A stretch of DNA of 34,785 nt from a virus, in the UHGV virus genome UHGV-1780165; one strand, written 5' to 3'. Each line of letters starts with the position of its first letter. Within the stretch, counting starts at the first letter, position 1. Both the position numbers and the translations under genes were made by a program. The notes under the pieces are model-generated. The model was not told the origin of the DNA and made no database searches. It worked only from the letters and a program-made list of their open reading frames with translations. Of this stretch, positions 24,913 through 25,563 are shown one piece after another.

Positions 24913-25563
24913 ATGAATAACATGACAACGAAAGAGCTTTTGACGGCACTTCCAAAATACAAAAGCCATAAAACAGTTCGCGCCTCAAAAATCAAAGATA
25001 TCGAAATTATCGCCCTAATGGATGTGGTCCTTTTTTGCAACATCGAAGTCGTTGAGCCAGAAGGGGTAAAAGTCCATGTTGATAAAATATTTTTGCAAAA
25101 ACACCGACCAGAAATTGGCGGATATCTGGTCGCTTATGAGGACGGATCTCTGTCCTATTCACCAGAAAAAACATTTGAAGAAGGCTTTAGTCGGACTAAC
25201 GACTTCTTCGAAAATGGGGTATCGCTCAGCATTGAAGGTCACAATGGGGTGACATTCATTACAGCCAGGGACGTAACTATTTCTGCTGGCGGTATCGCTA
25301 CTCTACAAGAAGAAATCGACCTTGAAGCAGCCGACTTCTCTGATGCGCTAATGTGGTTGAAGGAAGGCAAGAAAGTTGCCCGACGCGAGTGGAAAGGCGA
25401 AAAGCAATTCTGCTGGTTAGTTCTCGCTGGAAGCGTCAATTTACACGGCATTCACGTTCCTTATGGTGACCATTTTGTATTGAAAGATGCACAAAATATG
25501 GACAGCGTTTGGTTGCCGTCTGTGGATGATTTACTGGCCTGTGACTGGTTTGTTGTGGAGTGA
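24913..25563 (+). CDS. two-domain protein with C-terminal DUF2829 (Tad2-like) domain
   Basis: ATG 24913 with GAGGAAAG RBS; C-terminal ~75 aa FSDALMWLKEGKKVARREWKGEK...VWLPSVDDLLACDWFVVE fits the DUF2829 pattern as recalled. Confidence 0.6.
   Translation: MNNMTTKELLTALPKYKSHKTVRASKIKDIEIIALMDVVLFCNIEVVEPEGVKVHVDKIFLQKHRPEIGGYLVAYEDGSLSYSPEKTFEEGFSRTNDFFENGVSLSIEGHNGVTFITARDVTISAGGIATLQEEIDLEAADFSDALMWLKEGKKVARREWKGEKQFCWLVLAGSVNLHGIHVPYGDHFVLKDAQNMDSVWLPSVDDLLACDWFVVE

Follow-up and report, generated by a model that had tools for sequence, protein, structure and literature searches.

A Tad2-like domain joined to a widespread Dec-type OB domain next to ssb in a P1-type phage-plasmid, a candidate anti-defence sponge

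Phage proteins of the Tad2-like family (PF11195, formerly DUF2829) act as sponges for the nucleotide messengers of bacterial immunity: Tad2 proteins sequester 3'cADPR as well as His-ADPR and N7-cADPR (ADPR, adenosine diphosphate ribose), cyclic dinucleotides and cUMP/cCMP, and the DUF2829 proteins characterised by experiment all bind immune messengers. Solved Tad2 is a homotetramer in which two V-shaped dimers with an alpha2/beta2 interface interlock through alpha1, and the solved or tested proteins considered here, SPO1 Tad2 gp34.65 (8sme/8smf), Myroides ModTad2 (9eib/8v3e), HgmTad2/AcrIIA7 (8kbi) and SptTad2 (8wjd), comprise 88-158 residues without an N-terminal extension. Sponge domains also occur joined to a second small phage domain, as in Acb4-Tad2 of phage Pm86, Tad2-Sequestin and Acb4-Sequestin (gp59 of phage Ab09). 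Here we examined UHGV virus genome UHGV-1780165, a 34,785-nucleotide (nt) stretch of DNA that we call the window, which represents a P1-type phage-plasmid. The gene that follows its single-stranded DNA-binding protein gene ssb encodes a fusion of an OB-fold domain, a linker and a Tad2-like domain, the latter thus preceded by 140 additional residues. The protein is not a new kind of system, as its DUF2829 label, sponge fusions in general and a partner resembling PDB entry 6E3C had all been noticed before; what is new is an uncharacterised OB-linker-Tad2 variant with an unusual pocket allele in a P1-type phage-plasmid. By analogy with its relatives, we estimate a probability of about 0.6 that it serves as an early-expressed, signal-sequestering anti-defence sponge of P1-like phage-plasmids.

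The initial annotation of this gene had assigned the C-terminal ~75 residues to DUF2829, and a profile search bore this out. PF11195 matched residues 141-215 over profile positions 2-73 of 73 with an expectation value (E) of 2.7e-18 and 66.7 bits against a cut-off of 25, far beyond chance. The assignment is not new, because the RefSeq name of the protein already carries DUF2829 (WP_063612274.1, "DUF2829 domain-containing protein", from the PGAP annotation of plasmid pMTY1586_IncY). Among PDB sequences, phmmer recovered ModTad2 (9eib, E 9e-11), Tad2 (8v3e), SPO1 Tad2 (8sme, E 6e-6), SptTad2 and AcrIIA7/HgmTad2, with AcrIIA7 (9kzr, 8kbi) the weakest of the Tad2 matches (E 0.006-0.014). The C-terminal 76 residues comprise a full DUF2829 domain with 40% identity to ModTad2 and 30% to SPO1 Tad2. 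In an AlphaFold2 (AF2) monomer model of the full protein, built on 49 homologues, residues 137-216 reached a predicted local distance difference test score (pLDDT) of ~90. Foldseek placed this domain on ModTad2, SPO1 Tad2, HgmTad2 and SptTad2 with probability 1.0 and target-normalised template modelling (TM) scores of 0.62-0.91 (ModTad2, 0.77-0.91; SPO1 Tad2, 0.70-0.85), in agreement with the Tad2-like fold that had been anticipated. Family membership and genomic context together support the proposed anti-defence function.

To what extent the messenger pocket is retained can be read from the phmmer alignment with the PDB sequence, from which residues of SPO1 Tad2 were mapped onto the window protein. 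In SPO1 Tad2, W25 and W73 stack on the messenger, N26 and D79 provide polar contacts, T78, I63 and T65 contact the adenine, and waters are coordinated by N26, D67, H71, W73, S76 and D79. The Trp-Trp-Asp-Ser core is kept (W25 = W160, W73 = W200, D79 = D206, S76 = S203). In the 49-sequence family alignment, W160, W200 and D206 are invariant and S203 nearly so, and the alpha1 helix motif FSDALMWLKEG is likewise invariant. Six positions are altered (N26 = K161, T78 = D205, H71 = S198, T65 = D192, D67 = Q194, I63 = L190). Four of these residues, K161, D192, S198 and D205, co-occur in a "short-loop" allele, and other alleles carry N, N, V and G there; the beta2-beta3 region of the window allele is 9-17 residues shorter than that of its sister alleles. 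In solved Tad2 this region holds alpha2 and the V-dimer interface, and in ModTad2 and HgmTad2 a second pocket forms in it. Alignment and model thus point to a Tad2 pocket core signature combined with an altered lining and dimer region.

The gene lies in the order prt, pro, lydD, lyz, ssb, OB-Tad2 gene, isaA-like gene, hxr, ddrB, and window positions 24100-26500 are 100% identical to the E. coli TUM1586 plasmid pMTY1586_IncY (NZ_CP135714.1). Its open reading frame (ORF) of 216 amino acids (aa) starts at the ATG at 24913 and ends with the stop codon at 25561-25563, and a GAGGA Shine-Dalgarno sequence (24902-24906) stands 6 nt before the start. An alternative GTG start at 24745 would give 272 aa but has no support, as PGAP picks the ATG and a full-length PHROG 872 alignment begins at residue 1. 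With ssb ending at 24715 and a 197-nt spacer before the ATG, the position after ssb given in the initial annotation was correct (Table 1).

The operator-like site upstream of ssb sits 36 nt before the ssb start, the spacing of the annotated Ossb of P1. Seven 17-mers resembling the C1 operator occur in the window (positions 3371, 7645, 8109, 8192, 10229, 20341 and 24191) versus 0.18 expected from shuffles, which fits a P1-type immunity network. No terminator-like site was found on the + strand between ssb and the OB-Tad2 gene or before the isaA-like gene, and an Rfam scan of the whole window, including the spacer, matched no family. We presume that ssb is the first gene of an operon with the OB-Tad2 gene. 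Because a C1-operator-like site precedes ssb and no terminator-like site intervenes, early, repressor-controlled co-transcription of the two genes is likely. Such expression would fit anti-defence cargo and, by analogy, echoes the ssb-adjacent anti-signalling hotspot of N4-like phages, in which sponge genes cluster beside ssb; the Acb4-Sequestin gene gp59 of Ab09 is also close to an SSB gene. PADLOC and NCBIfam returned no match for the OB-Tad2 protein or its isaA-like neighbour, and the latter also had no match in Pfam or PDB.

Table 1 Features of the OB-Tad2 locus in window coordinates (RBS, ribosome-binding site; CDS, coding sequence)
Feature	Coordinates	Strand	Details
C1-repressor operator-like site (Ossb/Op21 equivalent)	24191..24207	+	ATTGCTCTAATTATTTT, 2 mismatches to operator consensus used; upstream of ssb
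ssb, single-stranded DNA-binding protein	24227..24715	+	PF00436 E 7e-40; DNA 96-99% identical to P1/SJ46 ssb
197-nt conserved spacer	24716..24912	+	ends in RBS GAGGA; 99% identical to P1 up to window 24916
CDS, OB-linker-Tad2 fusion protein WP_063612274.1, 216 aa	24913..25563	+	ORF, RBS, Pfam, RefSeq
N-terminal Dec-like OB-fold domain	24940..25203	+	residues ~10-97
Beta-rich middle segment	25204..25284	+	residues 98-124, two allelic types, pLDDT ~40 in monomer
Conserved Tad2-module leader, recombination junction	25285..25332	+	residues 125-140, ...SAGGIATLQEEIDLEA
Tad2-like (DUF2829) domain	25333..25560	+	residues 141-216; PF11195; Foldseek to Tad2 structures
Hypervariable segment in Tad2 domain	25424..25510	+	residues ~171-200; beta2-beta3/alpha2 region, pocket-lining positions; three loop alleles
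isaA-like gene, 260 aa, possible partner gene	25570..26352	+	phrog_2326 E 1.5e-149

The N-terminal ~135 residues had been described as one novel, uncharacterised domain. They indeed match no Pfam family in their OB part and their function is uncharacterised, but instead of a single novel domain they form an OB fold and a linker, and the OB fold is widespread. Residues ~10-97 were modelled with pLDDT 82-94 in the full protein and, when folded alone, with pLDDT 91.5 and a predicted TM score (pTM) of 0.81. The domain matches phrog_11049, a PHROG of unknown function. A phmmer search with residues 1-135 gave 2,514 representative clusters (E<=1e-3) among 1.8 billion representatives, and a search of a 5.8-billion-protein set with the OB profile gave 3,758 clusters (E<=1e-5), of which the best 120 were nearly all standalone proteins of 84-100 aa. 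Phages thus mostly encode the OB domain by itself, as a protein of ~90 aa, and the family was found in many INPHARED phages. Eleven residues are at least 90% conserved (H19, K20, H64, Y71, Y75, D77, Y79, S81, S83, E89, Y92), and most of these are lost in the phage L decoration protein Dec. The neighbourhoods of four standalone OB genes were mixed, with early/replication and restriction-alleviation neighbours and, in one case, internal-virion and polyvalent protein genes; none of the four had an adjoining known sponge Pfam domain. In that one case (ENA metagenome contig L014, 64.7 kb), the OB gene (5001-5264) lies between T7 gp14-like/SLT internal-virion genes and the gene of a 2,378-aa ART-PolyVal polyvalent protein, whose start it overlaps, which hints that some members of the family could be delivered with the virion.

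Pfam scanning of 87 multidomain representatives bearing the OB domain revealed recurrent sponge partners: PF21825 (Sequestin) in seven, PF13876 (Acb4) in five, PF11195 (Tad2) in four and PF24729 (the Acb2/Tad1 hairpin) in one. PF21825 is the Sequestin sponge family and PF13876 has been treated as the Acb4 sponge family; Sequestin itself was found through its fusion to Tad2 and Acb4 (Tal et al., bioRxiv 10.1101/2025.07.12.664507). The remaining partners were diverse and mostly unknown, MazG-like pyrophosphatases among them. Two further sponge families emerged from profile comparisons. A 374-aa protein in the table of Lockin homologues of the same preprint (bioRxiv 10.1101/2025.07.12.664507) matches the OB profile with its first 96 residues (hhalign probability 99.4%, E 3e-21), which precede a distinct Lockin domain. 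RyR Tad, which is gp68 of Pectobacterium phage vB_PatP_CB1, was described in a June 2026 preprint (bioRxiv 10.64898/2026.06.04.730250), in which its N-terminal domain was crystallised as a domain-swapped dimer and its fold was called one of unknown function that often forms a single ORF; residues 1-70 of translated gp68 match the OB profile (hhalign probability 97.1%, E 5e-11). By these sequence matches, the OB domain is attached to at least six unrelated sponge families: Tad2, Acb4, Sequestin, Acb2/Tad1, Lockin and RyR Tad.

The fusions differ in their build. RyR Tad shares with the window protein a homologous N-terminal domain followed by a C-terminal sponge domain, but its C-terminal domain is unrelated to Tad2 (RyR Repeat12-like, all-alpha), its N-terminal domain is shorter and lacks the central hairpin region, and it has no beta-rich middle segment. 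The two-domain sponges with Acb4, Tad2 or Sequestin resemble the window protein in pairing a sponge with a second small phage domain, and some relatives of the window protein (P0072) bear an extra C-terminal Sequestin domain; in those two-domain proteins, however, both halves are demonstrated sponges, whereas the OB partner is only a candidate. We also considered whether the OB domain is a Lockin and rejected this: it forms a compact OB barrel, is frequent in INPHARED phages and co-occurs with a separate Lockin domain, whereas Lockin is a curved, elongated beta structure that assembles into a hexameric cog and is under-represented in sequenced phages. A tail-fibre-repeat::OB::Tad2 protein of 306 aa (P0051; GCA_012072645.1, AAROFW010000135.1, 19-939), in which the phage tail-fibre repeat runs into the middle of the OB domain, was discounted as a likely contig-end chimera because only 19 nt separate its start from a draft-contig end. 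Many Sequestin proteins (table S1, bioRxiv 10.1101/2025.07.12.664507) open with a stretch of ~45 residues that contains the motif GY-V-YEDGY-SWSP-FE-Y; this stretch aligned with the C-terminal half of the OB profile over 27 columns (probability 97.4%) and may be a truncated or shortened OB domain.

Taken together, the favoured mechanism would run as follows. The OB-Tad2 gene would be co-transcribed with ssb from the C1-repressed ssb promoter, and the sponge would be made once C1 repression is lifted or on entry into a new cell. The Tad2-like domain would use its invariant alpha1 helix to oligomerise (solved Tad2 forms a tetramer), and a nucleotide immune messenger would be trapped between protomers. 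Family membership suggests that this is a TIR-derived ADPR derivative or a CBASS or Pycsar cyclic nucleotide; the host effector would then stay off. The OB domain would be an accessory module, and the most conservative role for it, by homology with the domain-swapped RyR Tad dimer, would be to oligomerise or stabilise the sponge.

Several points weigh against this mechanism. K161, D192, S198 and D205 stand where SPO1 Tad2 has the ligand- or water-contacting residues N26, T65, H71 and T78. The AF2 model shows a beta-hairpin in place of alpha2, the helix that forms the V-shaped dimer interface of Tad2, and because of this replacement tetramer formation is not assured. Some tested Tad2 homologues fail against the system on which they were tried, and the N-terminal domain of RyR Tad alone (gp68 1-86) showed no apparent activity against type I Thoeris (bioRxiv 10.64898/2026.06.04.730250). 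Co-transcription with ssb is deduced from the DNA sequence alone. Finally, Hadary et al. (Sorek group) dropped proteins with a 'PDB 6E3C' domain, together with Sequestin fusions, from their 84-protein sponge screen, the largest of its kind. In the literature searched, 6E3C is mentioned in an anti-defence context only in the Methods of that systematic screen, and the supplements of the screen include no sequence of the OB-Tad2 type.

The main rival reading, compatible with a sponge function of the Tad2-like domain, is that the OB domain is itself anti-defence, either as a sponge for a second signal or as a binder of a defence protein. The fusion would then hit two targets at once, like the Acb4-Tad2 and Acb4-Sequestin proteins. 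Its mostly standalone occurrence, its attachment to six unrelated sponge families, which is the guilt-by-fusion logic that revealed Sequestin, and its many highly conserved polar or aromatic residues, most of them lost in Dec, all speak for this idea, as do the location of standalone OB genes in early or accessory regions and the removal of 6E3C-domain fusions together with Sequestin fusions from the Sorek group screen. Against it, gp68 1-86 alone had no apparent activity against type I Thoeris as noted above and contributes to dimerisation, and the diversity of the other, mostly unknown partners would also fit a generic carrier or oligomerisation module. We regard an inhibitor at each end of the window protein as possible but less likely than not. 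That the OB domain constitutes an independent family of phage immune antagonists, the seventh or later, with the window protein as a two-headed inhibitor, is likewise possible though rather doubtful.

Comparison with related elements showed the gene to be a precisely bounded cassette whose slot elsewhere holds other cargo, in line with the variable interval proposed in the initial annotation. Exactly the stretch 24917-25573 of the window is missing from P1; the insertion or deletion has precise ends, with the RBS and ATG used again, and the same slot of P1 carries isaA, IS1 and isaB. P7 has nmpC, and the P1 relative MH422554 lacks the OB-Tad2 gene and has isaA followed by a 364-aa gene. Within the gene, the DNA is 98.7-99.2% identical to phage SJ46 on both sides of an unalignable stretch of 87 bp (the hypervariable segment in Table 1). 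Most E. coli copies match nt 1-511 only, and among E. coli alleles the N-terminal domain (50-99% identity), the two types of middle segment and the three types of Tad2 loop are combined independently of one another: P0001 is 99% identical to the window protein in the N-terminal domain and 100% in the middle segment but only 31% in the loop, and P0010 and P0022 are 100% identical to it in the loop but 50-59% in the N-terminal domain. We read the gene as a mobile, mosaic cassette. Because the pocket-lining segment is swapped among the alleles, this mosaicism suggests that the alleles may differ in ligand range.

In another P1-like lineage, a dUTPase stands in place of the OB domain and middle segment. 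Nucleotide homology with this dUTPase-Tad2 gene sets in at window 25284, immediately ahead of the invariant EIDLEAADFSDALMWLK junction, and the leader motif EIDLEAADF is nearly invariant across differing N-terminal partners. The dUTPase::Tad2 fusion, of 241 aa (P0070; P1-like metagenome/SRA contig L011, 4001-4726), contains the same Tad2 module with its leader, and its gene adjoins those of the C1 repressor and a Cre-like integrase (c1, cre). An isaA-like homologue with 48% identity comes after it (L011, 4733-5497), and an X-Tad2 gene and an isaA-like gene may travel as a module.

The exact OB-Tad2 protein was found on 138 contigs, and the gene occurs in 211 of 5,426 complete E. coli genomes (~4%), nearly always plasmid-borne, with the 3' end of the window allele in only 26 of the 211. 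Phage RCS47 (NC_042128.1, 15495-15950) carries the same allele with 99.3% identity over residues 1-152. The match stops at residue 152, where the record annotates 'part 1' and an inverted repeat, and the gene appears to be interrupted there by an insertion sequence (IS). These comparisons also touch on the annotation of the neighbouring genes. The annotated start of P1 isaA is a GTG that lies 30 nt after ssb and gives 320 aa (P1 3646-3823; window 24745-24916); the shared GAGGA and ATG (window 24902-24915) suggest that the true start of isaA lies there and that the upstream 56 codons are untranslated spacer. The 364-aa gene that follows isaA in some P1-like elements is labelled 'terminase large subunit' (MH422554 2100-3194; L011 5490-6584; copies 52% identical), a label that looks doubtful; the gene is absent from the window, and its MH422554 product had no Pfam match.

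Fusion of the same Tad2 module to a dUTPase, together with the MazG-like partners of the OB domain and the position beside ssb, might also indicate a nucleotide-binding accessory of phage DNA or nucleotide metabolism; absence from P1, dispensability and the IS interruption in RCS47 might equally mark a decaying cassette without current function. We consider both improbable, since the ORF is intact across the contigs and complete genomes just listed, the hallmark Tad2 residues are invariant, and the characterised members of the family all bind immune messengers; dispensability and patchy distribution are, moreover, typical of anti-defence cargo.

Profile comparison linked the OB domain to a single solved protein, the capsid decoration protein Dec of phage L (6e3c), whose OB fold is of the same type, and this raises the question of a role in the virion. 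The two proteins share a layout. In Dec, an OB domain (1-98) precedes a spike of 36 residues (99-134), which needs the trimer to fold and is unfolded in the monomer; in the window protein a beta-rich stretch of 39 residues (residues 98-136, NGVSLSIEGHNGVTFITARDVTISAGG...) with pLDDT ~40 comes after the OB domain. The OB domain and this stretch could accordingly act as the OB 'leg' and trimeric spike of Dec do, attaching to the capsid or being packaged, with the DUF2829 domain displayed or delivered. A standalone OB relative between the portal and major capsid genes of Ralstonia phage GP4, and the one beside internal-virion and polyvalent protein genes in the metagenomic phage described above, would agree with such a role. 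Yet the capsid-contact residues of Dec (K30, Y31, Y49, Y71, E73) are not kept in the window protein, and in a profile alignment these positions are variable in the OB family or lie under the family's own conserved YEDGY motif; Dec in turn lacks the family's HK and YEDGY-S-SP motifs and has no C-terminal sponge domain. Dec is a late structural protein, whereas the OB-Tad2 gene lies in the C1-controlled early unit of ssb with no late promoter ahead. Virions of P1 are free of decoration proteins and its genome of the OB-Tad2 gene, and the GP4 capsid structure (3.7 Å) shows gp1 and gp2 only. A trimeric stalk would also be mismatched with the tetrameric Tad2 assembly. Searched against PDB sequences, residues 86-141 gave only non-significant VgrG/baseplate matches (E 1.5-2.5) and no significant one to Dec or a beta-helix, and for this reason a trimeric beta-helix in the middle segment is conjecture. 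The window protein is probably not a decoration protein, and we regard a virion-associated function as very unlikely.

Least credible is an AcrIIA7-type anti-CRISPR activity, in which the target of the DUF2829 domain would be Cas9 and not a signal. E. coli is not known to carry type II CRISPR-Cas. AcrIIA7 proteins are members of DUF2829 and appear among the PDB matches, but as the weakest of them; solved AcrIIA7/HgmTad2 binds cADPR and cGG as a sponge (PDB entry titles), and those who discovered Tad2 argue for an anti-Thoeris and against an anti-CRISPR role of the family.

Among the common carriers of resistance genes in E. coli and Salmonella are P1-like phage-plasmids. If the fusion protein is an early-expressed sponge, as we favour, it would ease the establishment of these elements in hosts that carry Thoeris, CBASS or Pycsar. 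The evolution of sponge specificity can be followed in a natural experiment, as the pocket residues of the three Tad2-loop alleles co-vary in DNA that is otherwise ~99% identical. Of wider promise is the OB family itself, which has no Pfam entry, spans ~90 residues and thousands of members, and is fused to at least six unrelated sponge families. This pattern resembles the one that led to Sequestin and makes the OB domain a concrete, testable candidate for a further anti-defence function. Should the OB domain prove to be an antagonist, the independently assorting alleles of the N-terminal domain, middle segment and Tad2 loop would bear witness to an arms race with the signalling defences of E. 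coli, and Dec of phage L would have branched off from an anti-defence domain to bind capsids.

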